Origin: Bacteroidota bacterium
Lineage (GTDB): Bacteria; Bacteroidota; Bacteroidia; AKYH767-A; OLB10
Direction: 5' to 3'
Length of the DNA stretch: 64,000 nt
NCBI GenBank assembly: GCA_016713445.1
Contig: JADJPB010000001.1
Span: 449,000 to 512,999 of the forward strand
Shown one piece after another: positions 5,956 to 57,856 of the stretch (the first letter of the stretch is position 1; each line of letters opens with the position of its first letter). Both the position numbers and the translations under genes were made by a program. The notes beneath the pieces are model-generated. The model saw only the letters and a program-made list of their open reading frames with translations, did no database searches and was not told the DNA's origin.

Positions 5956-7101
5956 ATGAAACGCATATTGATTTTATTTGGAGTGATACTTTCACTTAGC
6001 GCTTATGGCCAAAAATCGGCAGTACAAACTGCATTCAACTATTTACGTTACGACGATTTAGACAAAGCCAAGGAAGCTATTGATGGCGCGGCGATCTCGG
6101 AATCTACGATTGGATACCCTAAAACCTGGTATTATCGTGGAAGCATTTACCATGCAATTTATGAGTCTACCAAACCCGAATTTGCTGCGTTGAAGCCCGG
6201 TTCTTTACATGAAGCCAGAATCTCTTATGAGAAAACGCTTGAACTTGACACGAAGAACGAGTTTAAAGATGATGTAATGAAACGTTTAGAAGTTGTAGCG
6301 TCACAATGCTTGAATACAGGTGTCGACAGCTATAAGGAAGGGAAATATGCTGACGCATTGAAATCATTCCAAGCATCAGTTGATCTCAATAAAAAGTTCT
6401 TTAAACGCACCGATACATTGGCAATTTACAATGCCGGACTCGCGGCTGATAAATTGGGTGATGTTACTACAGCCTTAAACAACTTCAAGATATTAACCGC
6501 TGCAAACTATGGAGGATCAAGGTTATATAGTATTATGGCAAATATGTATTTGGATCAAAAAGATACAGCTAATGCTTTATTAACCATTAATGAAGGACGC
6601 CAGAAGTTTCCGGAGGATGGAACCTTAATTACGCAAGGACTCAATATTTATTTGAGTAGCGGACGTGATTTAGAAGCCTATACGCAAAACGAAGAAGCCA
6701 TTAAAGCGGATCCCAGTAATGCGGTCTTGTACTATATTAAAGGAACTTTAGCGGATAAGTTAGGAAAGATGGAAGAAGCAGTAACCGCTTATAAGAAGTC
6801 TATCGAGCTCAAAGCTGATTACTTTGATGCCGTTTACAATCTAGGAGCCATGTATTTTAATGACGGTGCTGAAATGGCTAATAAAGCGAATAAAATTCCA
6901 GCCAATAAGGTAGCGGAGTATGATGCAGCGAAGAAGAAGTTCGAAGCTAAATTCAAGGAAGCATTACCATATTTGGAAAAGGCTCACCAGCTTAATTCAA
7001 CTGACAAAGCAACCATGGAAAGTTTGCGACAATTGTACGCCAGACTGGGTGATTTAGTCAAGTCGGGTGAGATGAAAAAGAAATTAGAAGGAACTAAGTA
7101 A
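5956..7101 (+). CDS. TPR-repeat protein with N-terminal signal peptide
   Basis: 381-aa ORF with signal-like MKRILILFGVILSLSAYGQ. Repeated TPR-like helices are present (A..Y..AL.LD, YYIKGTLADKLGKMEEAVTAYKKSIELKADY). Confidence 0.75.
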   Translation: MKRILILFGVILSLSAYGQKSAVQTAFNYLRYDDLDKAKEAIDGAAISESTIGYPKTWYYRGSIYHAIYESTKPEFAALKPGSLHEARISYEKTLELDTKNEFKDDVMKRLEVVASQCLNTGVDSYKEGKYADALKSFQASVDLNKKFFKRTDTLAIYNAGLAADKLGDVTTALNNFKILTAANYGGSRLYSIMANMYLDQKDTANALLTINEGRQKFPEDGTLITQGLNIYLSSGRDLEAYTQNEEAIKADPSNAVLYYIKGTLADKLGKMEEAVTAYKKSIELKADYFDAVYNLGAMYFNDGAEMANKANKIPANKVAEYDAAKKKFEAKFKEALPYLEKAHQLNSTDKATMESLRQLYARLGDLVKSGEMKKKLEGTK

Positions 7102-7687: not shown

Positions 7688-8010
7688 AGGCAGTTCGATC
7701 GAGGATTTTTTAAACCTGCCTGCAGCAGGCAGGCGCAACGATCGTAACGTTCAGCTTAGGCAGTTCGATCGAGGATTCTTTAAACGCAACGATCGCAACG
7801 TTCAGCTTAGGCAGTTCGATCGAGGATTCTTTAAACGTAACGATCGCAACGTTCAGCTAGGCAGTTCGATCGAGGATTCTTTAAACGTAACGATCGCAAC
7901 GTTCAAGGCAGTTCGATCGAGGATTCTTTAAACGCAACGATCGCAACGTTCAGCTTCAGGCAGTTCGATCGAGGATTCTTTAAACGTAACGATCGCAACG
8001 TTCAGCAACG
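7688..8010. repeat. tandem direct repeat, six copies of a ~47-53-bp unit (aggcagttcgatcgaggattctttaaacgYaacgatcgYaacgttcagctt)
   Basis: Read directly: copies start near 7688, 7758, 7809, 7859, 7906 and 7958. Copy 1 carries an extra 19-nt palindrome at 7715-7733. There are no unique spacers. Confidence 0.9.
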
Positions 8011-8165
8011 TTCGCAGAGGTTTTTCATATGATCTTATCTAACATCTAATCGCGATGACTCGCGACTAACCTCAAGTGTCCTCGTATGTTCTCAAGTGGC
8101 TCTAGTGTTAAAATCCGCTTCTCTAATCGAAGGACAATAAAAGACCTATCAATTCTGAATTCTTA

Positions 8166-8230
8166 TCCCGATAGACTTCGGCGAGAGCTCAGTCGAACGC
8201 TATCGGGACTGAATCCGATAGCTATCGGAT
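8166..8230. repeat. two adjacent palindromic hairpins (tcccgatag..ctatcggga, and the perfect 18-nt atccgatagctatcggat)
   Basis: Read directly. They are flanked on both sides by aattctN heptad words (8151-8165 and 8231-8272). Confidence 0.8.
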
Positions 8231-9636: not shown

Positions 9637-9853
9637 TGAAATTATGTTCGGTTGGAGCATAGTGGGAATTGCAAATTGGTGAGTTGGTGAATTAGGCAAA
9701 GCCGCGACAAAATTTTGCTTCCGCTGCTACCGCTGCAAAACTTTGCGGTCGCTGCGTTTAAGTTCGGTAATTATTATTGAACCGAAACACTAATTACAAA
9801 TTAAACTTTTTAAATGTTACCTAATTAGCTAACTTTGTAAAAATCATTTTACC

Positions 9854-12122: not shown

Positions 12123-12178
12123 GGCTCGATCTCGATACTCGATGCTCGATCTCGATACTCGATGCTCGATGCTTGAAT
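12123..12178. repeat. heptad tandem repeat (ctcgatN)n
   Basis: Read directly: ctcgatctcgatactcgatgctcgatctcgatactcgatgctcgatgcttgaat. Confidence 0.8.
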
Positions 12179-24255: not shown

Positions 24256-24312
24256 TATCATTCTCCCTCTCATTCTCTTTCTCATTCTCTTTCTCATTCT
24301 CCCTCTGCCCCA
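24256..24312. repeat. CT-rich tandem repeat (ctcattctcYYt)n
   Basis: Read directly. It abuts the stop codon of the beta-lactamase gene. Confidence 0.75.
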
Positions 24313-25128: not shown

Positions 25129-25234
25129 AAAATTCGGGGAGATGGGATTGCTAAACTATGTAAATTTTAGCTTCGATAGAAACTTTTTTTAACGCGGCGG
25201 CGCCACGGTCAGCAACGGTCGCTGCGGTCGCTGC

Positions 25235-26361
25235 TTAACGTGGCTTCGCTGCGTTTAAAAATCCTTGTATCACGGAAGCTGCATTAAACGACGCACCTTC
25301 TCCTCCTAAACGCATTTTCAATTCCTCAAACGATGCTAACATTTTGTCACGCTCATCCGTTTCTAAAATCTTTAACAACTCACTTTTCACTTGCTTCGGA
25401 TTGAGGTCGGCTTGGATAAGCTCCTTTACGATTTCACGATCCATCACTAAATTGACCAAGGATATGAACTTGACTTTGATGAGTTGTCGAGCAATCCAAT
25501 AGCTCACTTTGTTGGCTTTGTAGCACACTACCTCGGGTACACCGAAGATAGCAGTTTCTAAAGTCGCCGTCCCACTAGTAACTAAAGCACCTGAAGAAGC
25601 ACTTAAGATAGCATACGTTTCTCCTTGAATATGAGTGATATTTGATCTATTGTCAAGGTGGGATGTGTAAGCATCCATGACTTGCGAAGGAGCCATCGCT
25701 AAGAGGAAGTGGTAGTCATGCATGTCCCGCGTCGCCTCGAGCATGATGGGCAACATGGTGTCGATTTCTTGCTTCCGACTCCCCGGTAAGAGGGCAATGA
25801 GCTTTTTGTTTTCGGGGATGCCGTGTTTCTTTTTCCAATTATCGTCAATCCATTTCGAGTGCCAATCTCATCTAACAAAGGATGTCCCACAAAGTCGACC
25901 TCCATGCCCCACTTTTGGTAAAAGTCTTTTTCAAAAGGGAGAATGACCATCATTTTGTCGATGTCGCGCTTGATTTTATGGATCCGCGATTCTTTCCAAG
26001 CCCATATTTGCGGACTGATGTAATAGATGGTTTTGATGCCTTGTTCACGGGCAAACTCCGCTATGCGTAGATTGAAGCCTGGATAATCGATAAAAATCAT
26101 CGCATCGGGCTTCCATGCTAAAATATCTTCCTTGCAAAACTTGATGTTCTTGAGGATGGTTCGCAGGTTGGCAATCACCTCGATAAATCCCATAAAAGCA
26201 AGGTCTCTATAATGCTTCACCAACTCACCGCCTTGCTCCTGCATCAGATCGCCACCCCAACATCTAAAGGAAGCCTGCTTATCGTTTTCACGAATGGCTT
26301 TCATCAAATTGCTCGCGTGCAAATCGCCCGATGCTTCCCCGGCTATGACATAGTACTTCAT
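25235..26361 (-). pseudogene. lpxB: lipid-A-disaccharide synthase, one frameshift (about 25699-25756)
   Basis: The N-terminus is MKYYVIAGEASGDLHASNLM. The C-terminal fragment has ..SGTATLETAIFGVPEVVCYK... The two overlapping fragments sum to about 375 aa. Confidence 0.9.
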
Positions 26362-27477: not shown

Positions 27478-27822
27478 AAATAGAATTGAGGACAAAGGTA
27501 AATGATCCGTGATTAATGGAAGTTTAAACGCAACGGCGCAGCGTTTAGCAGCGGTCGCAGCGAATCTCCCGAAATCAAATCCGTGATTATCCGATTTATC
27601 CGTGTCATCCGTGCCTGCCTGCCGAAACTTCAGTGGAGGTAGATTCCATCCTAAAGCACTATAAAAGTCGAAATCAAGACATTTTAGCAGTCCTTATCCA
27701 CCCACTCCGCCAAAATTTCATGTAAAACATTGGTATCAATGTCATTATGTCTTCAAAAACATGTCTTTTTTGCAATGGAATAGTCATTGATAATGCAGGG
27801 GAAATCTTAAAACAGAAAAAAA

Positions 27823-31228: not shown

Positions 31229-32638
31229 TGAATAAACCCCGTCAAATAATTAAGTATGTCATCGCTGATCTTTTGTCGGCTATGTTCGCGTGGGCTTTAT
31301 TTTATTATTATCGTAAAATAGGAATTGAGTCGGCTTTGTATGGCGATCATCTCCCCTTTCAGCCCGACAAAAATTTCTATTTAGGGATTACGGTGCTTCC
31401 GATCGCTTGGGTGGGAATCTATGCCTTGGTTGGTACCTATAATGATATCTACAGGAAATCGAGGTTGCGTGAATTTGGACAAACCTTATACGTATCGTTG
31501 ATAGGAGTTCTTATTATTTTCTTTTCACTATTATTAGATGATGTTATCGTGTCTTATAAGAGCTATTACAATATCTTTTTTGTCTTATTCTTCTTGCAAT
31601 TTGGAATTACCTCGATGGTTCGCTTTTTTATTACAAACCCATACCGCACGTAAAATAAAAAGTCGGCAATTGATTTCCTACGCTCATCATCGGAAGTAGT
31701 GAGCGGGCGGTAAACCTCTTCAAAGAGTATGAGGCCGAGAAACTAAGTTTGGGATATAAATTTATTGGCTTTATACATGTTGATCATAACAACGGTAAAT
31801 ACTTGGCGACCTTCTCCGCACTTAGGTGGAATTGAAGATCTTACTCAAATTATAGATGCGGATAAAATTGAAGAGGTGATCATTGCTATCGAATCTTCGG
31901 AGCATGAATTTATCGGTAGAATCATCAATGAATTGGAAGATAAAGATGTCATCATCAAAATCATTCCCGATATGTACGATATCCTTGCAGGGACTGTTAA
32001 GATGACTTCTATTTTCGGATCTCCTCATTATCATCAATCCCTCCTTGATGCCGGTTTTGGCAACAATCTTTGAAAAGGATTTTGGATATTCTAGTTTACC
32101 TTTCTTTTTGATGTTATTGAGTCCGGTATATGTAATTACCTCTATCATCATTAAAACAACTTCTCGTGGTCCGATCTTCTTCGCGCAAGAGCGAATTGGC
32201 TTGCATGGAAATCCATTCACCATCTATAAGTTTCGATCGATGTTTGTAGGTGCTGAAAAGGGAACGCCGATGTTATCCAGCGACAATGACAATCGCATTA
32301 CTCCCGTTGGAAGGTTTATGCGCGGCATTCGTCTGGATGAAATCCCACAATTTTACAATGTCCTCATTGGTGATATGTCACTCGTAGGACCGCGTCCAGA
32401 GCGCCAATTCTTCATCGACCAAATCATGCAACGCGCACCACATTACCGCCACTTGCATAAAGTACGTCCCGGCATCACCAGCTGGGGACAAGTTAAGTAT
32501 GGGTATGCTGAAAATGTAGAGGAGATGATTCATCGCTTGAAATACGATATCATCTACATCGAAAATATGTCATTGTCGTTGGATTTTAAAATCCTTTTTT
32601 ATACGATCAAAACTGTATTACAGAGAAGCGGGAAGTAG
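31225..32638 (+). pseudogene. polyprenyl-phosphate glycosyl-1-phosphate transferase (WbaP/WcaJ-like bacterial sugar transferase), at least 4 frameshifts
   Basis: The C-terminal fragment has the bacterial sugar transferase signature (GPIFFAQERIG..G..F.IYKFRSM ... DEIPQFYNVLIGDMSLVGPRPE). An N-terminal TM fragment and a central CoA-binding-like fragment (KFIGFIHVD.., IIAIES) lie in other frames. Confidence 0.8.
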
Positions 32639-32668
32639 CTGCTGGCTTCTGGCTGCTAGCTGCTAGAA
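32635..32668. repeat. left arm of an inverted-repeat pair (gctRgMa word family)
   Basis: gtagctgctggcttctggctgctagctgctagaa starts in the stop codon of the sugar-transferase gene and is complementary to 32936-32967. Confidence 0.8.
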
Positions 32669-32935
32669 TTTATTTTTTTTATTCTGTTTTGATTAAAGGT
32701 CATATTGTAACTAAACTCTTTCTCGATTGCAAAAAAACTCTGTGGTTCTCAGTGTGACTTTTGTGTCTCAGTGGTAAAAGTTGTTTTTATAAAAACCGAA
32801 ATCGTTTTTCTATCAATGAATCTTGTTTAGCACGGGGTGGAACTCTTGACGAGTTAAGTGTAAAGCGGTTACGCGGAGGGTTCAAGGGTCTAAATATTAA
32901 TTTTCGGAGGTGAATTTAATTCGTTTCGAAAAAAA

Positions 32936-32967
32936 CTAGAAGCTAGAAGCTAGCAGCCAGAAGCTAC
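32936..32967. repeat. right arm of the inverted-repeat pair
   Basis: ctagaagctagaagctagcagccagaagctac ends in the recF stop codon. Confidence 0.8.
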
Positions 32968-36658: not shown

Positions 36659-37415
36659 ATGGCGCACGACATCGATTATCAAATAATTGGAGACGATATT
36701 CAAGTAGTAGAAGTAGAAATGGATCCCGGAGAAGCTGTTCGCGCGGAGGCTGGAGCCATGCTTTTTATGGAAGATGATATTGAAATGCAAACGAATACAG
36801 GAGGTGGAATTTTTAAAGGGTTGAAGCGGATGATCACAGGGGAAAGTTTTTTTATTACCAGTTTCACCAACAATGGAAATAGTAAACGGAAAATGGCATT
36901 TGCAGCGCCCTACCCAGGGAAAATCATTGCGATTAATCCAAAAGATTTTGGTGGCAAGTTTCTTTGTCAGAAAGATGGTTTTTTATGTGCAGCTCAGGGA
37001 ATCGAAATTAATATTGCTTTTACAAAACGTATTGGTGCGGGACTGTTTGGCGGAGAAGGATTTATCCTTCAGGAATTGTCGGTGACGGAAATACTTTTAT
37101 TCATGCTGGGGGAACCATCTTAAAAAGACAACTACTGCCTGGAGAAACGCTTCGTGTCGATACTGGCTGCCTAGTGGCTTTCGAGCCGTCTGTGCAATAC
37201 GACATTAAATTTATCGGTGGTTTTCGAAATTCACTCTTCGGCGGCGAAGGCTTGTTTTATGCTTTGATTAAAGGTCCGGGTTTGTGTACTTACAAAGCGT
37301 ACCTTTCTCTCGTATGGCCGATCGAATTGTTGCCGCATCTCGTGTTGGTGGCGGTAGAGAAGAATCCCGAGGGTTAGGTGGGGTGTTAGGTGGGATGATC
37401 AGTGGGAAAGAATAA
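36659..37415 (+). pseudogene. TIGR00266/AIM24 (DUF124) family protein, 2-3 frameshifts
   Basis: The fragments read MAHDIDYQIIGDDIQVVEVEMDPGEAVRAEAGAMLFM.. and ..GGEGFILQ.., ..FGGEGLFYALIKGPG... A Gly-rich tail (..SRGLGGVLGGMISGKE*) sits in a third frame. Confidence 0.7.
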
Positions 37416-37648
37416 CGCGAAATGCGAATGAACACGAAGGACGCGAAAAGCGAATGAACACGAAATGCGAAAAAGTGAATTTCGCACCGCTTCGCGATAT
37501 TATATTCTTGGTTTAATTAAATGTTAATTTTATATAGCAAGTTAATTAGCGAAGAATTAATTAACACCCATAATAGCAAATTTCGCATTTCGTGTTCATT
37601 CGCATTTCGCGTCATATCGCATTTTCGTGTTCATTCGCATTTCGCTTC
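37416..37648. repeat. ORF-less long-hairpin element (cgaaatgcgaatgaacac word family) with an AT-rich loop
   Basis: The left arm (37416-37500) and right arm (37577-37648) are imperfectly complementary over about 70 nt. The element starts right after the stop codon of the upstream gene. Confidence 0.85.
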
Positions 37649-37667
37649 AAATCAAATTTCGTAACTT

Positions 37668-38977: not shown

Positions 38978-40085
38978 ATGTTATTGGGTATCCCCTTAGA
39001 AACCAAAGAAAGAGAGTGTCGAGTAGCCCTCACTCCCGATATTTGTTCACAATTAATTGAAGCCGGTTTTCAAGTTCAACTTGAAAAAGGAGCCGGATTG
39101 AAGTCTTACTATCCTGACGATCAGTATATCGCCAAAGGTGTTAAAATTGTTGATGGCGCTTCCTCAATTTACTCCAGTTCGGATGTGGTATTGAAGGTAA
39201 ATGCTCCTTCCACCTCTGAAATTTCAGGAATGAAGAAAGGGGCCACCTTAATTTCATTTATGTGGGCCGGAACCAATCCTGAGTTAATTGAAAATTGCGC
39301 GAAGCAAGGTATCTCCGCTTTTTCGGTAGATGCGATTCCGCGTATATCGAGAGCACAGAAGATGGACGCGTTAAGTTCTCAAGCCAACTTAGCTGGATAC
39401 AAGAGTGTAATCATGGGAGCCAATGCTCTTGGAAAGATATTTCCGATGTTGATGACCGCTGCTGGTACAATTAAACCTTCAAAGGTGGTGATTTTTGGTG
39501 CTGGTGTGGCAGGACTCCAAGCGATTGCTACTGCAAAACGATTGGGATCCATCGTAGAAGTAACGGATATCCGCCCAGAAACAAAAGAGCAAGTAGAATC
39601 ATTAGGAGGGAAATTCATCATGGTAAGTGATGATGACTCTATCAAAATTGAAGGTGGATATGTGAAAGGGGTGTCAGATGAATTCTTGAAAAAACAACAA
39701 GAACTCGTTTCTAAACATGTTGCCACTGCAGATTTAGTAATCACCACCGCCCTCATCCCAGGAAGAAAAGCGCCTGTCCTCGTTACGGAAGACATGGTAA
39801 AAGCATGAAATACGGATCAGTCATCGTTGACATGGCCGTGGAGCAAGGTGGTAATTGTGTGTTAAGCGAGTTGAATGCAACGGTAGTGAAACATGGTGTA
39901 ACCATCATAGGAGAATCGAACATTCCTTTCTCCCTACCCTTAAACGCCAGCGATCTGTATGCAAAAACATACAAACATTCCTTCTCCATTTAGCCACCAA
40001 AGACGGGTTTAAATGGGAGATGGATGAAGAAATTACGAAAGGTTCCTTGTTGGTACATAATGGCGTTTCTACCGCTACGAAGTAA
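38978..40085 (+). pseudogene. pntAA: NAD(P) transhydrogenase subunit alpha part 1, two frameshifts near 39805-39990
   Basis: It is AlaDH/PNT-like: RVALTP, the NAD-binding site VVIFGAGVAGLQAIATAKRLG, then MKYGSVIVDMAVEQGGNC and ..VKHGVTIIGESNIP.. in shifted frames. Confidence 0.85.
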
Positions 40086-40122
40086 GTAGTAGCATAGTGA
40101 TACTTCTGCACGTACGAGTTGA

Positions 40123-40192
40123 ATTGCAAATTGGCAAGTTGGTGGGTTGATGAGTTGGTGGGTTGGTGGGTTGGTGAGTTGGTGGGTTAGTG
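40123..40192. repeat. left arm of the hairpin cassette: about 9 heptads of ttggtgRg
   Basis: Read directly: attgcaaattggcaagttggtgggttgatgagttggtgggttggtgggttggtgagttggtgggttagtg. It is complementary to 40771-40807. A related word occurs at 9667-9693. Confidence 0.85.
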
Positions 40193-40359
40193 TCGCAAGT
40201 CTTCTCGATAGTAAATTGATTCGCTACTCAGATCGATATAGGAAATGAAGATAAATTATAATTATACAATAGAATTAATAGAAGCTGAAAGCAAATCTGA
40301 ATATTAAAATTGAACAAACAAATGAACTTTTATATAAAACACTTTAACTTAATTAAACA

Positions 40360-40703
40360 ATGTCTCAATTATCTGAACAATTACGAAAACAAACAAAAGA
40401 AATGGCGATCAGCGCCATCTTATTAACAAGGAAACTTCCTCAAAACGACGAGGGATGGACAATTAAAAAACAACTCATAAGATCCGCTACTTCGGTGGCA
40501 GCCAATTACAGGTCGGCTTGTAGAGGAAGAAGTGATCGAGAATTCTATTCTAAATTATGTATTGTTGTTGAAGAGCTAGATGAATCAATGTTTTGGTTAG
40601 AGTTAACAGAAGATATTGAATTAATTCTTCAAAAGATGTGCAGCCAGTGATGGAAAAAATGAATAAATTATTGAAAATATTATCTGCTGCAAAAGCACAC
40701 TAA
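40360..40703 (+). pseudogene. four-helix-bundle protein (23S rRNA intervening-sequence protein family), with a frameshift near its 3' end
   Basis: The pattern ..QLIRSATSVAANYRSACRGRSDREFYSKLCIVVEELDESMFWLEL.. is typical of the family. The adjacent frame continues ..KDVQPVMEKMNKLLKILSAAKAH* to 40703. Confidence 0.8.
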
Positions 40704-40770
40704 GAAATAAAATAAATCCTAAAGAATTAGATTAAATAATAGTTGGTTGATTTAAATTAATATTAATCAA

Positions 40771-40807
40771 GAATCCACCAACTCACCAACTCACCAATCC
40801 ACCAATT
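40771..40807. repeat. right arm of the hairpin cassette (ccaacYcaccaa words)
   Basis: gaatccaccaactcaccaactcaccaatccaccaatt is the reverse complement of the left-arm heptads and ends 10 nt before the pntAB start. Confidence 0.85.
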
Positions 40808-40817
40808 AAAAATTAAT

Positions 40818-41123
40818 ATGGAAAATATAATCAACCTCGTATCTGATCACCGCGAAATGCTCTATTTCGTCATCTTATCCGTATTCGTCGGAATTGAAGT
40901 AATTGGCGGTGTGCCTACCGTTTTGCATACCCCTCTCATGAGTGGTGCAAATGCCATTCACGGTGTGGTAATCGTAGGAGCCATTTATGTGATGTTAAAC
41001 ATCGACCCTACTAATATCTTCGCTTTAGTGCTTGGATTTTTAGCGGTATTACTCGGAACATTAAATGTGGTGGGTGGCTTTGTAGTGACCGATCGTATGT
41101 TGGAAATGTTCAAGAAAAAATAA
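40818..41123 (+). CDS. pntAB: NAD(P) transhydrogenase subunit alpha part 2 (membrane)
   Basis: 101 aa with three TM helices, ..VPTVLHTPLMSGANAIHGVV.. and ..GGFVVTDRMLEMFKKK. Confidence 0.85.
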   Translation: MENIINLVSDHREMLYFVILSVFVGIEVIGGVPTVLHTPLMSGANAIHGVVIVGAIYVMLNIDPTNIFALVLGFLAVLLGTLNVVGGFVVTDRMLEMFKKK

Positions 41124-41150: not shown

Positions 41151-42562
41151 ATGAAGAGCTCCCTGCTCGAAATTTGTTACCTCTTTGGCTCTGTCACTTT
41201 CATCGTTGGATTGAAAATGATGGGTAATCCGAAGTCAGCCCGTAAAGGAAATTTATTAGGTGCATTAGGAATGGTGATCGCCATTTTCGGAACGATTTTT
41301 CTTTTGAAAAGAAAGATCATGCCGGAAATATTGATACTGCATTTGTAGTTCCTGCAATAGTCTATTATCTCATATTTGGTGCCATAGCTCTTGGAACTGT
41401 GATCGGTTGGTTGACCGCCAAGCGTGTTCAAATGACCAAGATGCCTGAACTGGTTTCTATGTTCAATGGAATGGGTGGTGCATGCGCTGCATTGATTGGA
41501 TTAATGGAGTACGAGCACAATTTGGATAGCACCGGAGCATTGGCTGCTATCATTGCCGGAATGGTGATCGGAACCGTTTCTTTCAGTGGATCAATCATCG
41601 CTTATTTAAAATTGAATGGTTCCATGAATAAACCTATTCGATTGCCGCAATACAATATCATCAATACAATTTTCATGATTTCTTTAGTGGCGTTTGGAAC
41701 TTGGATGGTGATGATGAAACCAGATAATATGGCGATTTTGTATGCTTTGTTCTTTGCAGCTATCGTTTATGGAATTCTATTTACGATTCCCATTGGTGGT
41801 GCAGATATGCCGGTAGTTATATCGTTGCTGAATTCATTCACTGGACTCGCTGCAGCATTCGGCGGATTCTTATACGACAATAAAATTATGCTTACAGGTG
41901 GAATCCTGGTAGGTTCCGCAGGAACTCTTTTAACACTCGTGATGTGTAAGGCGATGAATCGTCCATTGAGTAATGTCATTTTCGGTGCATTTGGAGCTTC
42001 TGGTGCGACTGGAGATCGTGAAGTGAGTGGAAATATCAAAGACATCAACGTAAGCGATACGGCTGTTCTAATGAACTATTCTAAGAAAGTAGTGATTGTA
42101 CCTGGATATGGATTAGCAGTAGCTCAAGCACAACACGTAATTCATGAGTTAGAAATGATTTTAGAAGAACGAGGTGTAAGTGTGAAATATGCCATTCATC
42201 CCGTAGCTGGTCGTATGCCTGGACATATGAACGTGCTTTTAGCAGAGTCCAATGTTTCTTATGATAAGTTGGTGGAGATGGAAGACATCAATCCTGAGTT
42301 TGCTTCAACCGATGTTGTGTTGGTCGTTGGAGCAAATGACGTTGTAAATCCAGCTGCACATAATGATCCGGCTTCCCCAATTTATGGAATGCCAATTTTA
42401 GATGTAGAAAACGCAGCCCATATCATCGTCAACAAACGTTCGATGAATGCGGGTTATGCCGGTATCGAAAACGAACTCTTCTTTAATCCCAAAACGAATA
42501 TGTTGTTTGGTGATGCGAAAACGGTTCTGACAAAATTAGTGGCGGAGTTGAAAGCATTGTAA
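41151..42562 (+). pseudogene. pntB: NAD(P) transhydrogenase subunit beta, one frameshift (about 41340-41400)
   Basis: The N-terminal TM fragment begins at 41151. The large fragment has ..VVIVPGYGLAVAQAQH.., ..HPVAGRMPGHMNVLLAE.. and ..VVGANDVVNPAA.. Confidence 0.9.
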
Positions 42563-42852
42563 CGCGAAATGCGGTCTGACGCGAAATGCGAACTGACGCG
42601 AAATGCGAATGAACACGAAATGCGAACTGACGCGAAATGCGAACTGACGCGAAATGCGAACTGACGCGAAATGCGAATGAACACGAAATGCGAATGAACA
42701 CGAAATGCGAAATAATGCGAAATTTGATTTTCGTTTTTTTCTGGATCCTCTTATTACGACTAAAATATTATAATTAATAGAATATTAAATTAAAATATAC
42801 GAAGCGGTGCGAAATTGATTTTCGCATTTCGTGTTCATTCGCATTTCGTGTC
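42562..42852. repeat. second copy of the cgaaatgcgaa hairpin element, in opposite orientation, with a tandemly expanded left arm
   Basis: The left arm (42562-42733) is about 9 tandem units of gacgcgaaatgcgaact/gaatgaaca. The right arm is 42800-42852. The motif cgaagcggtgcgaaatt (42800-42816) is the reverse complement of 37478-37494. Confidence 0.85.
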
Positions 42853-42887
42853 CAATCAAGTTTAATGCGAAGCGTAATTTCTAATAC

Positions 42888-43945
42888 TTAGAAAGTAATA
42901 ACTTTACTCCCTTCAACATCCGAAGCTTGAACTAATTTCCCAATCGGTTTCCAACATCGTGGATCGATGTTATTCTCTTTGAATAAATCTAAGAGAGCCG
43001 GAACGTTTTTCTCTGCGATGGCAATGAGTAATCCCCCACTTGTTTGAGGATCACATCCTAAGTGCAATTCACGCGCTCCAGGTTCTTGAATTAAATGTCC
43101 GTAGCTGTTCCAGTTTCTGTAGGTAATTGCCGGAATGGTGAACTGATCCATGTAGGCATCCAAATTATCTAGTTCAGGAATGGCTTTTAAATCAAGATGG
43201 GCAGCAAGGCCGCTACCCGAGCCATCTCAAGTAAATGACCAAATAAACCAAAGCCAGTAACATCCGTCAGGGAATGTACACCTTCAAATCCTGCTAATTG
43301 CGCTCCAATTTTATTTAATGTAGTCATGGAGTTGATGGCAATTTGCATATCGACGGCCTTCGCTTTGCCCATTTTTTCAGCTGTGGTTATTATACCTACT
43401 CCTAGTGCTTTTGTTAAGAAAAGTAAATCACCTTCCCTGTGCGGTATCATTTCGAAGCAATTGATTCGTTTGAATAATACCGTTGACTGCTAATCCGATG
43501 ATTGGCTCAGGACTATCAATACTATGTCCGCCGGCAAGTGGTATGTTCGCAGCTTCGCATATACTTCTTCCGCCAGCAATTACTTTTGCTGCAACTTCAG
43601 GAGCTAATTTATCGATAGGCCAACCGAGGATTGCGATGGCTAGATTCGGTTGACCGCCCATCGCGTAGATATCAGAAATAGCATTGGTAGCAGCAATTCT
43701 ACCGAAGTCGTAGGGATCATCTACAATGGGCATAAAAAATCGGTAGTGCTGATGAGTGCAAAGCCATTTCCAATTTCCAAAACGGCAGCGTCATCGCGCG
43801 TTGCATTGCCTACCAACAAATTCGGAAAATCTTTTGTGCTTTCATTTCCTTTTAGAATTTCATCTAACAAAGCTGGTGCAATTTTACAACCGCATCCATA
43901 TCCATGACTAAACTGTGTTAATTTGATGGGCTCACTCATTTGCAT
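42888..43945 (-). pseudogene. selD: selenide, water dikinase, 3 frameshifts
   Basis: Four consecutive fragments are present. The N-terminus is ..[12 protein letters not shown].. (Cys form, not Sec). [28 protein letters not shown], ..TDVTGFGL.GHL.EMA.. and ..DPQTSGGLLIA.. follow. Confidence 0.85.
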
Positions 43946-46570: not shown

Positions 46571-46827
46571 AATTACAAGTATTATTAAATATAAACTGGA
46601 GACGTTCGTTTACCTATAGACTCAAGGTTAAACACTAGAGACACTTGAGAACACTTGAGAACCCTAGAGAATTTAAGAGAAATCTTGAGATCAATAGAGA
46701 AACTAAAAAAACTATAGTGCACCCTTTTAAGTTCATCAATAAACAAATTGCTTAAGTACTCTCCAGTGACCTTTAGTGCCTTCGTGTTTAAAAAAGCTTA
46801 AACCTTGCTATAATTTAAATTCCAAAA

Positions 46828-48090
46828 ATGTCGTTACGAATTATTATCTTCATTCTCGTCCTTCTTGCAATCGATTTCTACGTTTTTCAAGGGTTCAAAT
46901 TCGCCTTTAGAAATACATCCATAACCACTCAAAAGTCGTGAGCATTGCTTTTTGGAGTTTAACAGTTTTACGACTTCTGTCTTACTAGCAATGTTAATCA
47001 AAGATTGGTCGACCTGGCCAAAAGTGATAAAGACCTATGCTGGAGCGATGGTATTCATCATTACTTTTTCTAAATTATTTATCATTTTATTTTTATTAAC
47101 AGATGATATTTTTAGAGGAGTAAAATGGGCGTATGAAAAAATATTTCCTGGTAAAGAAGCCATAGATCCGTCCGCAATTCCAGCTATTCTCAATAAAGGA
47201 ATCTCTCGCTCCGACTTTTTAGTGCGAAGTGGCTTAGTGGTGGCAGCGCTTCCTTTTGTAGGATTGATTTATGGAATGGTAAAGGGAGCTTATGATTATC
47301 AAGTAAAAAATATAAAATTGAATTTAGCGAATTTGCCAAAAGCTTTTCACGGATATAAAATCATTCAGATTTCTGATTTGCATGTGGAAGTTTCGTTAGT
47401 TCGGAACCGTTAGAAGAAGCGGTGCGCATCATCAATGAACAAAATGCAGATATCATTCTATTCACAGGTGATTTAGTGAATAATCGCTCGGATGAATTGA
47501 ATATGCATAAAGCAGCTTTGTCAAAATTAAAAGCAAAGCACGGCGTATTTTCTACTCTGGGGAATCACGACTATGGTGATTATGTACCTTGGGATACAGA
47601 GGAGCTGAAGCGTGAAAATTTAGCTGCTTTAATTGCAGGTCATAAAGAGATGGGCTGGAATATCTTGATGGACGAACATCGACATATTGAAAAAGACGGA
47701 GAGAGAATTACCCTAATTGGTGTTCAGAATTACAGTATGCATTTACGATTTCCTAAATATGGAAGTTTGCCAAAGGCCACTGAAAATATTCAATACAGTG
47801 ATTTCAATATTTTGCTCTCTCACGATCCTAGTCATTGGCGCGGTGAAGTCATCAAAGATTTTCCTGAGATTGATCTCACCTTAGCCGGACATACTCACGG
47901 CTTCCAATTCGGCGTCGAACTTCCCAATTTCAAATGGAGTCCAGTACAGTATGTTTACAAAGAATGGGCAGGACTTTACACAGAAGGAAAGCAACAGCTG
48001 TATGTCAATAGAGGTTTAGGCTTTCTAGGCTATCCTGGGCGGGTTGGGATATTGCCTGAGATTACGGTGCTTGAACTGCACCGGAGTTAA
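46828..48090 (+). pseudogene. membrane-anchored metallophosphoesterase, 2-3 frameshifts
   Basis: N-terminal TM fragments are followed by ..IIQISDLH.., then DIILFTGDLV, GNHDY and LAGHTHG. Confidence 0.75.
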
Positions 48091-48375
48091 TTCAGAATGT
48101 AGAATTAAGAATTCAGTCATGAGGCTTCCAGATCAGAATTACCCCTTACCTATCACCTTTTTTATCTTTTATCTTCCATTTCACAGACCCTCTTTAATTC
48201 GCTCTCGAATACTAACGCTCGTTAACTCTACCTTATTCTGCCGATAACATCTGGAACTTCGTTCTGAATTCTCCTCCTCCTCCTCACGGTAGCTTTCAAT
48301 ACATTATTCAGTTTTCTACAAAATCTTCACTTTATTGTAATAATTCTGAATTCTGCATTTATAATTCTGAATTAT
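48088..48375. repeat. hairpin element of the aattcWgaat word family with a ~220-nt loop
   Basis: The left arm taattcagaatgtagaattaagaattcag (48088-48116) begins in the stop codon. The complementary right arm is taataattctgaattctgcatttataattctgaattat (48339-48375). Confidence 0.8.
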
Positions 48376-48391
48376 CCCCTATCTTTATTCT

Positions 48392-50438
48392 ATGAAAAGA
48401 CTTTACATCCTATTAATTTTAATATTTTGCCAGCTCAATGTTTCAGCACAATGGCAGCAGACCAGTGGACCAGGAGGAGGATATATTTCTTCTTTCGCTT
48501 CTAATGGAAATAACCTTTTTGTTGCGACAACTTTAGGCGGTGTTGGATATTATGGAGCCGGAGTTTTCCTTTCGACAAATAATGGTGCTACATGGACACC
48601 AAAAAATGCGGGCTTACTTTGCACTGGTATTTATACTCTATTGACAATCGGCACGTCGATTTTTGCAGGCACCGATAATGGAATTTTCACCACCAATAAC
48701 AGTGGTAATTCTTGGAGTCAACTTAGTAATGGAATTCCTTCTACCTATGTAACTTCATTGATTTTAGATGGCGTATCAATTATTGCTGCGACATATGACA
48801 GCGGGATGTTTGTTTCAAACAATAATGGAGTTTCTTGGAGTCCAATAAATATGGGCTTTGCTAATCCAGAAGTGTGGGCATTGGCATCCAACGGATCTGA
48901 GATTTATGCGGGTGTAAATGGAGTTGGACTATATAAATCAATTGACAATGGTGCTAGTTGGAATCTGTTAAATAATGGAATTTCAAGTTCTAATTTCTCC
49001 TGTATTGCTTTAAATGGACAAGATGTGTTTGTTAGTGCCACAGGAGGTGTTTTTCATTCTAATAATGGAGGTGCGCAATGGAATTCACTTAATTCAGGAC
49101 TGACTAGTTTACAAATAAAAACAATTTTTATTAATGGCTCAGATCTATTTGTAGGTACAAATGACTCCGGTTTATTTTATTCGAACAATAATGGGGCTTC
49201 ATGGTCGGCAAGCAATATTGGATTGTTGAACAGTACCATTACTTCGGGAAGCATTCATAATTCTATTCTTTTTGTAGGTTCTGATGGCGGTGGAGTTTAC
49301 TCATCTGTAAATGGTGGATTGAATTGGAATCCTTCAAGTGTTGGATTAGTAAATAGTGCTATATCATCTCTTGCTACCGATGGGGTTCATCTTCTTGCTG
49401 GTTCCGAATCAGCAGGTTTGTTTTCCACAAATGACAATGGGGTTACTTGGACAGGTCAAAATAACGGTTTACCAGTTTGTAACATTACACAAGTTTTATA
49501 TGTAGATTCTGTGATGTATTTATCAACTTGGGGAGATGGTATATTTTCTTCTATAGACAGTGGGTATCATGGGCATCATTAAACACAGGATTAAACAACC
49601 TCTATTTAAATACAGTATTGGTAGACGGAGCAAATATTTTGTAGGAACTAATTCTGGAATTTTGCATACTAATGATAACGGAATTACTTGGACTACGATG
49701 AATTCAGGATTGGGAAGTCCAATAGTCATGACCATGGCAAAAAATGGAACCAGCATATTCGCCGGTACTTATGGCAATGGTGTTTATGTATCGAGCAATA
49801 ATGGAGCTTTTGGTCACTCACCAGTAGTGGATTTTCGCAAGCCGTCGTTTCAAAATTTTATCGCATAACGGATATTTAATTGCTGGAACCTTTGGTGGAG
49901 GGGTATTTACTTCTTCCGACAATGGAGTGAGTTGGACACCAAGCATTGCTACACCGTTTGGTGCTACTTATGACATGGTAGGTTATAATAATTTTCTTTT
50001 GTTGCAACAAGTGGCGGGGTAAAATTATCTAATGACTATGGGTATACTTGGAGTAATGTGTATTCAAATTCACTATTTAGTGCAGTTAGATCTATTGCCA
50101 CTCATGATGGATATCTTTTTGCAGGCACGTGGGATAAAAGTGTATGGAAAACTCTTTTAGCTCCTCTGGTAGGAGAAGATGAACTAACGTTCAATCTCAA
50201 CTTTAACTTGTACCCAAATCCTACAAATAATGTTTTAAATATCGATTTTAAAGGAACCCAAAACCAAGTAAATATAATTACGCTAATGAATGCATATGGT
50301 CAAATTGTTTATTCATCAAGCATAAATTCATCTGCAAAGGAATCCATCGATATTAGCCATTTACCAAGTGGAATGTATTTAGTTCATGTAGAATCGAAAG
50401 ACGGAAGGGCTACTCGTAAATTCATTGTTGAGGATTGA
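48392..50438 (+). pseudogene. BNR/Asp-box repeat protein with a T9SS C-terminal sorting domain, about 3 frameshifts
   Basis: A signal peptide is followed by more than 10 S-x-(D/N)-x-G-x-(T/S)-W repeats. The C-terminus ..LYPNPTNNVLNIDF...SGMYLVHVESKDGRATRKFIVED is typical of type A T9SS sorting domains. Confidence 0.75.
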
Positions 50439-50637
50439 TTCAATTCAGAATTAAGAATGCAGAATTCAGAATTAGTAAATTCTCTCCTAGGTCATCTTGT
50501 TATTCGCTTCGTAGCGTATCATAGCAATACTTTCAAAAGCAATATTTCAAATTGTGGTTCAAATTAGTTTTTCTCGTGAATTCGGTAGATAAATCCTAGA
50601 AAATAATTCTGCATTCTGAATTCTGCATTCTGAATTA
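50439..50637. repeat. second hairpin element of the aattcWgaat family with a ~125-nt loop
   Basis: The arms 50439-50475 (ttcaattcagaattaagaatgcagaattcagaattag) and 50601-50637 (aataattctgcattctgaattctgcattctgaattat) are complementary. Confidence 0.8.
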
Positions 50638-50648
50638 TATCTTTGCCC

Positions 50649-56842: not shown

Positions 56843-57688
56843 ATGGAATATATTGAATTAGATATCAAAATTAGTCCTTTGGATCCATTTAGGGAGTATA
56901 TGTCTTACCATTTGGCGGAAATAGGATTTGAAATGTTCACGGAAACGGAAAACGGTTTATTGGCTTATTCGCCATCGGATGCTTACAATGAATCAAGTGT
57001 AGATCAAATTTTCAAGGATGGTATCGAGTTAGGTTGTGAAGCGAGTTTCTCCTCTAAAATTATTCCATGGCAAAACTGGAATGAAGAGTGGGAAAAAGCC
57101 TATCAACCAGAAGTAATTGCCGGTAAAATATATGTACGTGCTGATTTTCATCCAGAGAACCCCGGCTACCCATTAGAAATTATTATTCAACCCCGAATGG
57201 CATTTGGAACAGGACACCACCCTACTGCTTCACAAGTGATGGAAATGATGTTGAAGATGGATTTTAAAGGAAAAAGAATTATTGACATGGGTTGCGGTAC
57301 GGGTATTCTTGCCGTCTTGGCCATGAAATTGGGTGCAGAGCATGCCATAGCCATAGACAACGATGCCAATGCTGTTGAGAATTCTGTCGACAATGTACTA
57401 AAAAACTCCTGTAAAAATATTGAAGTCTTTGAGGGTGAAGCTGTGGGATTAAAGGGTTTAAAGTGCGATATCTTCATCGCAAACATCAACCGAAATATTA
57501 TTTTAAATGATCTTGCGTTGTATAAAGAAACCATGACGAATGGTGGAGAGCTTATCACGAGTGGATATTATCTTCAGGATTTAACCATCATCACTAAGAA
57601 AGCCAAAGAATTTGGATTTGAATTTATTGAAAATACAGTACAGAATGATTGGTGCTGTGCAAGGTTTCTATTAGCTTCTAGCTTCTAG
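56843..57688 (+). CDS. prmA: ribosomal protein L11 methyltransferase
   Basis: 281 aa with ..IIIQPRMAFGTGHHPTA.. and the SAM motif IIDMGCGTGILA. The last four codons plus the stop (A-S-S-F-TAG) are encoded by the gcttcta repeat. Confidence 0.85.
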   Translation: MEYIELDIKISPLDPFREYMSYHLAEIGFEMFTETENGLLAYSPSDAYNESSVDQIFKDGIELGCEASFSSKIIPWQNWNEEWEKAYQPEVIAGKIYVRADFHPENPGYPLEIIIQPRMAFGTGHHPTASQVMEMMLKMDFKGKRIIDMGCGTGILAVLAMKLGAEHAIAIDNDANAVENSVDNVLKNSCKNIEVFEGEAVGLKGLKCDIFIANINRNIILNDLALYKETMTNGGELITSGYYLQDLTIITKKAKEFGFEFIENTVQNDWCCARFLLASSF

Positions 57689-57735
57689 CTTCTAGCTTCT
57701 AGCTTCTAGCTTTTAGCTTTTAGCTTCAAGCTTCT
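57671..57735. repeat. heptad tandem array (gcttcta), about 9 copies
   Basis: Read directly. It overlaps the 3' end of prmA. Confidence 0.9.
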
Positions 57736-57770
57736 TAATTGATTAATGCAATGTAATCCTAACAACTAAC

Positions 57771-57852
57771 ATCATCCAACATCCAATATCCAACATCCAA
57801 TATCCAACATCCAATATCCATCCAACATCCAACATCCAATATCCAACATCCA
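57771..57852. repeat. heptad tandem array (Yatccaa), about 11 copies
   Basis: Read directly. It ends 4 nt before the ATG at 57857. Confidence 0.9.
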
Positions 57853-57856
57853 AAGA

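Follow-up and report, generated by a model that had tools for sequence, protein, structure and literature searches.

A 64 000-nucleotide stretch of contig JADJPB010000001.1 from a Bacteroidota bacterium (hereafter the window) carries the NAD(P) transhydrogenase genes pntAA, pntAB and pntB, of which the first two are separated by 732 nt, counted from the pntAA stop to the pntAB start. This interval contains a four-helix-bundle (4HB) gene of the PF05635 family enclosed by two inverted and mutually complementary arrays of 8-nt words. A survey across species showed that such a hairpin-flanked setting is the rule for the 4HB family and not an oddity of the pnt operon. The interpretation that we favor, at a probability of about 0.6, is that the interval is a cassette made of a hairpin and an open reading frame (ORF), of the type known as intervening sequences (IVSs), which was inserted once into an mRNA operon, undergoes RNase III-type processing and is tolerated as a selfish passenger. 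We place high confidence in the anatomy of the cassette, its insertion and its generality, and moderate to low confidence in its processing by RNase III or in translational coupling.

All features of the locus lie on the + strand. The gene pntAA (38978–40085; dI domain of the alpha subunit; Pfam PF05222 and PF01262, NCBIfam pntA) is followed by a spacer at 40086–40121 that begins gtagtagcatagtga and holds additional stop codons. The left arm (40122–40192), which was delimited by Tandem Repeats Finder, by repeat and inverted-repeat families and by word counts, consists of the tandem 8-nt words GTTGGTGG, GTTGATGA and GTTGGTGA; 6.9 copies of GTTGGTGG with a period of 8 occupy 40138–40192, and degenerate units reach back to 40122. 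An AT-rich leader of 167 nt (40193–40359) precedes the 4HB gene (40360–40735), and a trailer (40736–40771) separates the stop codon of this gene from the right arm (40772–40807), in which about 4.4 copies of CACCAACT-type 8-nt words form the reverse complement of the left arm. A 10-nt spacer (40808–40817) then leads to the ATG of pntAB (40818–41123), which encodes the alpha-2 subunit with four transmembrane segments (PF12769). Its homologues are 84–93% identical, and there was no exact database match for the PntAB of the window. The beta-subunit gene pntB (41151–42562) is split by an indel in the window, and both pieces match PF02233. A preliminary description of the locus, made from the sequence, had placed the end of pntAA at 40085 and the start of pntAB at 40818 with 732 bp between them, which was confirmed by the sequence and by Pfam, as was its right arm, reverse-complementary and ending 10 nt before the pntAB ATG. 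It had also read the left arm as about nine heptads at 40123–40192; this extent was essentially correct, whereas the units are 8 nt long, with about seven clean and two degenerate copies.

The two arms are complementary at 85–91% over 34–39 nt. In both the minimum-free-energy (MFE) and the centroid folds of 40086–40830, nucleotides 40153–40187 pair with 40773–40807 in a predicted 35-bp stem that encloses the ORF, and the fold energy is −174.2 kcal/mol, compared with −142.5 ± 6.5 for shuffled sequences (z = −4.9). Furthermore, the arms pair around the ORF in the MFE folds of all seven intervals that were folded (the window and six relatives), with 34–58 long-range pairs. For the two-unit word, 0.08 occurrences would be expected in the window and 10 were counted, nine of them inside the two arms; the GTTGGTGG word is absent from every other hairpin there. 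The beginning of the left arm (gaattgcaaattggtgagttggtgaatt) recurs alone at 9664–9692, with the two-unit word at 9676–9691; this copy lies just past the intrinsic terminator of the preceding gene, and no partner arm was found near it. An Rfam scan of the window gave no family at threshold, rRNA included, and a tRNA scan of the window gave no match. No intrinsic-terminator-like site was found on the + strand of the cassette (40086–40817), ttaaaaattaat coming after the right arm, and the leader has no recognizable Bacteroidota −7 box and no sigma-70 promoter score above chance.

Comparison with relatives shows how the cassette sits in the operon. It is present at the junction between pntAA and pntAB in independent assemblies (NCBI, JGI, ENA and Logan) belonging to three lineages, namely A (the window, L001 and L010), B (L002, L003 and L006) and C (L090–L092), the PntB proteins of which are about 90% identical to each other. 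The syntenic locus L093 (PntB 85% identical) shares the Lactamase_B gene, the 121-aa gene and the selD-like gene that neighbor the operon in the window; there, 56 nt lie between pntAA and pntAB, with neither arms nor a 4HB gene. Three further loci (L094–L096) have an empty site with a 30-nt gap. At empty sites the tail of PntAA reads HNG-KAVHPTVSKVVLA before the stop (ending HNGKAVHPTVSKVVLA), whereas at filled sites HNG is followed by VSTATK (the window tail) or ARR, or YDG by VSRLK, before the stop. The last approximately 11 codons of pntAA and the spacer have therefore been replaced by the cassette in the filled junction relative to the empty one. The 4HB proteins are 66% identical between lineages A and B and 48–49% identical between C and either of the others. 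The arm words are GTTGGTGG/CCACCAAC in A, ATTGGTGR/YCACCAAT in B and GAATTGWTG/CAWCAATTC in C; they have diverged between lineages, yet complementarity has been kept, as seen in TTGGTGG/CCACCAA versus TTGATGA/TCATCAA. The number and the sequence of the tandem words also vary among L001, L002, L006, L010 and L091. These comparisons point to a single old insertion in the common ancestor of the three Bacteroidota lineages, with vertical inheritance since. An independent insertion in lineage C, the 4HB protein of which is 48% identical, was considered and rejected because the pntAA junction is shared and the words are one base apart. In relatives, the left arm of the pnt cassette contains up to three nested copies of a small palindrome, tcccgatagctatcggga or variants of it (L010 3700–3900; L002 5745–5775), and a similar palindrome is also found at approximately 8170–8225 of the window; this palindrome may represent another repeated element, smaller than the cassette, with the arms as its target.

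The gene in the loop could be assigned even before repair. The unrepaired 96-aa piece scores 49.1 bits against PF05635 (curated cutoff 33.8) and 69.7 bits against TIGR02436 (curated cutoff 24), and the intact 125-aa homologues P0001–P0007 are 89–99% identical to the 4HB protein of the window. DNA alignment with L010 and L001 located two 1-nt deletions in the A-runs at 40631–40634 and 40691–40694; after their repair the gene has 125 codons and its true stop is at 40733–40735. The start of the ORF at 40360 and its 4HB character, as given in the preliminary description, are borne out by the profile matches, while the end given there, 40703, has to be revised. The frameshift reported there exists in the letters as the two deletions and was misread, since these are probably long-read assembly errors and not signs of decay: disruptive small indels recur in pntAA (which they spread over three frames), pntB, lpxB and other genes of the window, and the nearest genome is a long-read metagenome-assembled genome. 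Genes split by single-base indels, in a pattern typical of unpolished long reads, were noted at 38978–40085, 41151–42562, 25235–26361 and 42888–43733 (pntAA, pntB, lpxB and the selD-like gene).

The AlphaFold2 model of P0001, which is 99% identical to the repaired protein, has four long helices and a pLDDT of 94. Foldseek aligned this model with 2RLD and 2GSC at TM-scores of 0.77–0.91 and with the accessory variability determinant Avd (4DWL and 8UB7) at 0.72–0.82, and a sequence profile of the 4HB protein matched 2RLD with E = 2e-23. The 2RLD entry contains five chains, and 2GSC is a homopentamer according to a passage of PMC4990558. Within lineages the dN/dS of the 4HB gene is 0.10–0.15, which indicates purifying selection. 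No PADLOC or PHROGs profile matched P0001 or P0011, no exact database match was found for P0002, and a tblastn search of the window with the 4HB protein found no second or relic copy within the gene-less hairpins described below. The family is large, with 14 941 clusters at 50% identity matching the PF05635 profile at E ≤ 0.001. To our knowledge, a role has been established for just one of its members, the Avd protein of diversity-generating retroelements (DGRs).

To assess generality, one genome per GTDB species was surveyed, which gave 80 4HB loci, and arm statistics were obtained on 76 species. The loci span Bacteroidota, Acidobacteriota, Ignavibacteriota, Chlorobi, Lentisphaerota, Planctomycetota, Calditrichota and Desulfobacterota. 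The arm score was the alignment of the 450 nt upstream of the 4HB gene with the reverse complement of the 300 nt downstream; this local alignment replaced RNAduplex on 200-nt flanks, which builds long loose duplexes and did not separate cassettes from controls. The median arm score was 36 for 4HB genes versus 19 for controls of the same geometry, with 71% of the 4HB genes above the 99th percentile of the controls. A score of at least 30 was reached by 63% of the 76 4HB genes, compared with 4.4% of 249 other genes at the same loci (Mann–Whitney p = 7e-22) and 6.8% of small control genes.

Of the arrays found in this way, 39 of 54 on the upstream side and 31 of 41 on the downstream side have words with a period of 8, the remainder being mostly 7 or 14, with a median of about five units per array and a median core arm length of 34.5 nt. 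The left arm begins a median of 2 nt past the upstream stop codon, which is within the arm in 32% of loci, and the right arm finishes a median of 6 nt ahead of the downstream start codon. Left arms with stop codons in all three frames occur in 63% of loci, versus 30% of shuffled sequences. On either strand the arm that is met first carries the G/T-rich word set (G exceeds C in 50 of 54 upstream arrays and C exceeds G in 37 of 40 downstream arrays), and in 19 of the 43 informative loci the two arms show heterogeneous units in mirrored order. Both neighbors are co-oriented with the 4HB gene in 55 of the 76 loci and both are opposed to it in three. Arms were found in every context of neighbor orientation; the idea that they serve solely to couple co-directional neighbors was therefore rejected, as they are equally present in the other orientations. 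Upstream of the 4HB genes, the Bacteroidota −7 box TAnnTTTG is no more frequent than in shuffled sequences (4 of 80, against 8%).

The host operons are unrelated across many phyla and include nuo, restriction-modification-like and helicase/methylase operons. Plasmid copies in Planktothrix, Nostoc, Gloeocapsa and Chlorohelix (L097–L101; Cyanobacteria and Chloroflexota) have the same design with 7-nt words, and are placed between co-directional helicase, DUF1156, N6-methylase and Swt1-HEPN genes or beside genes for site-specific integrases; in the Planktothrix locus L097, both flanks are hairpins in their own right, built of GATTTAC and GGGGATT heptamers. In L066, another 4HB cassette (6305–6721) with a separate pair of arms lies 2 kb from the first, a cassette stands directly upstream of nuoE in L070 (796–1768) with a third complementary array after nuoE, and several arrays bracket a RidA-like gene in L074 (2467–3985). 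These three layouts indicate that arrays can chain along an operon.

Descent and transfer can both be recognized in the family. Many pairs of 4HB proteins that are 75–85% identical have common flanking genes, which indicates vertical descent within genera. Pairs that are 70–74% identical, in turn, occur with unrelated flanks and across phyla; for example, the L018 protein (Chitinophagales) shares 74% identity with that of L085 (Ignavibacteriota) and 73% with that of L072 (Acidobacteriota), values above the 48–66% seen under vertical descent at the pnt site. In pairs of at least 65% identity with non-homologous flanks, the arms also share 6-mers (Jaccard index 0.147, versus approximately 0.02 for other pairs). 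Together, the cross-phylum identity and the shared 6-mers indicate that arms and ORF move as one unit, so that, judged from these sequence comparisons, the cassette behaves as a horizontally moving element. The preliminary description had proposed an IVS-like module of stem, loop and ORF inserted into an mRNA operon, and had looked to empty and filled junctions, to folding and to inverted repeats around other 4HB genes. The empty sites of L093–L096 beside the three filled lineages, the pairing of the arms in the folds of the window and its relatives, and the survey all support that proposal. Where it had left the choice between a mobile module and a regulatory stem, the mobile module is favored over a role specific to pnt, since the architecture recurs in unrelated operons.

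Several other repeats were noted in the window. Five hairpins without a 4HB gene are located at 37412–37662, 42562–42857, 48083–48379, 50437–50641 and 32636–32966. Their arms consist of 17-nt ACGCGAAATGCGAACTG units, AATTCAG 7-mers or CTAGAAG 7-mers around AT-rich loops of 100–250 nt, and abut the ends of flanking genes, the hairpin after pntB beginning at the last base of the pntB stop. They may be related to the cassette and lack its gene, or form an intergenic hairpin class of their own. In addition, a 58-nt inverted repeat with TCGCTGCGG words (25219–25276 and 27506–27563, 78% complementary) encloses surE, orf101 and lpxB. Short tandem words are unusually abundant in this genome: an intergenic array at 7734–8006 has 5.4 copies of a 51-nt unit; the adjacent, non-complementary arrays TAGCTTC × 9 and CATCCAA × 12 occupy 57665–57736 and 57769–57855; GCTCGAT × 7 and TCATTC × 7 are listed at 12124–12173 and 24258–24306; and the 10-mer AACACTAGAG is repeated four times at 46631–46690, with its complement at 8070–8098.

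The closest known system is the 23S rRNA IVS with its S23p ORF, as found in Leptospira, Coxiella burnetii, Brucella and relatives of Xanthomonas, the loop protein of which belongs to the same family as that of the cassette. In Coxiella, the IVS has a 28-bp terminal stem within which RNase III cleavage has been mapped, and tandem heptamers of variable number lie upstream of the S23p ORF (PMC4990558). The cassette resembles these IVSs in its terminal inverted repeats, which form a stem of approximately 28–35 bp, in an ORF that is sense to the host transcript, in variable-number tandem repeats of 7–8 nt on the 5′ side, and in a sporadic distribution with horizontal acquisition followed by vertical inheritance (PMC4990558). 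Every IVS feature that was compared (stem, tandem repeats, and sporadic or horizontal presence) is thus found in the cassette except location in rRNA, where IVSs lie in helix 9, 25 or 45 of the 23S gene. The host transcript is a protein-coding operon instead of an rRNA helix, the arms abut stop and start codons whereas an IVS abuts the halves of helix 25 or 45, and the ORF is under purifying selection whereas that of Coxiella is decaying and apparently untranslated.

Other known elements differ more clearly. Avd, which is regarded as a PF05635 homologue (PMC10053308), has the fold of the cassette protein, as the TM-scores given above show, and is a pentameric, nucleic-acid-binding partner of reverse transcriptase. 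However, the neighbors of the cassette gene are pnt genes, with no template repeat or variable repeat beside it, and no reverse transcriptase was found in the ORF list around the pnt site, as a DGR would need. We know of no description of word-array hairpins as a feature of DGRs. Intergenic tandem arrays of 7-nt words, such as the TAACTGA arrays of Beggiatoaceae, Cyanobacteria and Bacteroidetes and the short tandemly repeated repetitive (STRR) sequences of cyanobacteria, often lie by start or stop codons, contain stops in all three frames and are patchily distributed across phyla, including Cyanobacteria and Bacteroidetes (PMC4679880). The 4HB cassettes of cyanobacteria likewise use 7-mers; the STRR and TAACTGA arrays, however, are direct repeats with no enclosed gene and no partner array, whereas the cassette arrays are paired and complementary around one gene family, with a period of 8 in Bacteroidota. 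Miniature inverted-repeat transposable elements (MITEs), repetitive extragenic palindromes (REPs) and bacterial interspersed mosaic elements (BIMEs) are also small, repeated and intergenic, with inverted ends that fold in transcripts and no transposase of their own. The cassette differs from them by a conserved protein gene, by ends that are tandem word arrays and not a fixed terminal inverted repeat, by a word variant particular to each cassette and by the lack of a visible target-site duplication. The cassette is not a DGR, not a classical MITE or transposon and not an intrinsic terminator. No description of hairpin-flanked PF05635 genes outside rRNA was found in a full-text literature search that covered few subscription journals, which is an absence of evidence only.

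From these observations the following sequence of events is proposed. The cassette would be one discrete unit, a PF05635 4HB gene with two inverted arrays of about five 8-nt words, which entered the junction once and replaced the terminal pntAA codons and the spacer; since then the protein would have been held by purifying selection while both arms changed together. The 4HB gene would be read through from pntAA within the pnt operon RNA, which is the most likely mode of transcription because it has no recognizable promoter and is co-oriented with its neighbors. In this transcript the arms may pair into the stem of about 35 bp, which would loop out the 4HB gene and bring the pntAA stop and pntAB start regions side by side. 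By analogy with 23S rRNA IVSs, RNase III would cut the stem, releasing the 4HB RNA and splitting the operon transcript. Alternatively or in addition, the stem may couple the opening of the pntAB start region to the translation of pntAA, which is conceivable since the arms reach right up to the neighboring stop and start codons. The geometry of the cassette resembles that of translational coupling through long-range mRNA pairing, for example in the coat–replicase pair of MS2, with sequence from the end of one ORF pairing to the region where translation of the following gene starts; the synthetic omega interposon likewise has symmetric ends, the outward-facing strands of which carry stops in all three frames. 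Both likenesses are functional analogies only, and, unlike coupling systems, the cassette has arms also where neighbors are not co-directional. Arms and ORF would travel horizontally together in a very widespread class of cassettes, of which this is one member. For the cassette, the role of a tolerated selfish passenger fits better than that of a pnt regulator; a pnt-specific regulatory role is unlikely because the same design is found in unrelated operons and the site is empty in close relatives.

A number of points weigh against this reading. Approximately one third of the family members have no clear arms, and hairpins built of words but without a 4HB gene occur in this genome as well, so that arms are not necessarily exclusive to the cassette. 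The permutation test of mirrored unit order is somewhat biased toward the observed order, since segments were picked by best alignment. Among arm mismatches, G·U pairs (in the sense RNA) numbered 95 and A·C pairs 111 (p = 0.30), with no RNA-specific signal; these counts therefore give no reason to place selection for pairing in the sense RNA rather than in DNA. The comparison of filled and empty junctions shows no target-site duplication, and the ORF list around the pnt site includes no nearby transposase and no integrase, a trans-acting transposase being possible. Finally, we infer co-transcription, formation of the stem in vivo and cleavage by RNase III alike.

The competitor that fares best, which we regard as possible at lower odds, is that the element acts as DNA: the arrays would be inverted binding sites, much as transposon ends have subterminal repeats, and would be recognized by the pentameric 4HB protein or by a host factor of mobilization or maintenance. 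This explanation accommodates the absence of a G·U excess over A·C, the presence of arms that accompany the ORF regardless of neighbor orientation, and the outer-to-inner polarity of the words on both strands. It would also relate the median of about five units per array to the five chains of 2RLD and the homopentamer 2GSC; moreover, Ralph and McClelland are cited as having suggested that the ORF encodes a mobility component. However, a shared binding word alone would not require the mirroring of heterogeneous units in 19 of 43 loci, the homologous stem of rRNA IVSs is a demonstrated RNA substrate of RNase III, a helical bundle of 125 aa has no nuclease or recombinase domain, and a target-site duplication is not seen at the pnt site.

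A more far-reaching proposal, which is speculative and is put forward tentatively, is that PF05635 hairpin cassettes are a large unrecognized class of autonomous elements, in which the pentamer, with each subunit binding one word, recognizes the array of about five words of its own cassette, either as RNA or as single-stranded DNA, and so propagates or protects the cassette. If this were true, a possible route would be an Avd-like partnership with a reverse transcriptase acting in trans, following release of the stem-loop RNA by RNase III; 23S IVSs and at least some of the arrays of heptamers or octamers between genes in Cyanobacteria and Bacteroidota, both STRR-like arrays and gene-less hairpins, would then be special cases or decayed derivatives.

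It is unlikely that the arms are a generic intergenic word hairpin, perhaps resembling a terminator or insulator, into the loop of which a 4HB gene merely landed. The five gene-less hairpins that abut gene ends in the window, and a comparable hairpin after pntB in L001, would fit such a hairpin; the arms are nevertheless tied to 4HB genes across the 76 species (63% versus 4%), their word family tracks the 4HB clade over unrelated contexts, the GTTGGTGG word recurs in no other hairpin of the window, and the empty pnt site of L093 lacks the arms together with the gene. Still less probable is a host-adaptive regulator, in which the hairpin would set the ratio of PntAA to PntAB and PntB through mRNA stability, attenuation or insulation, with the 4HB gene incidental. 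In its favor are a stem base 10 nt from the pntAB ATG and the fact that three lineages with PntB proteins about 10% apart have all retained the cassette at one site, whereas the same architecture is found in unrelated operons in many phyla, close relatives function without the cassette, purifying selection acts on the 4HB gene itself and no terminator-like feature was found in the cassette. Chance simple-repeat noise or mis-assembly of an error-prone long-read contig, which the many indel errors in the window might suggest, is effectively refuted by the cassette and its arms in independent assemblies and is at odds with the word count and the fold z-score given above.

The origin and purpose of rRNA IVSs and of the S23p ORF have posed a question since about 1990. 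Under the favored interpretation, the 23S IVS becomes one of the places where a general cassette has landed, on the basis that most members outside rRNA are in the same hairpin, are fitted between a co-directional stop and start, and cross phyla with their arms. For annotation, such cassettes account for many 'gaps' of 600–800 nt within operons and for many intergenic arrays of tandem words. Cultured, tractable carriers are available in Hymenobacter, Mucilaginibacter, Dokdonia, Flavobacterium, Gracilimonas, Nostoc and Planktothrix.

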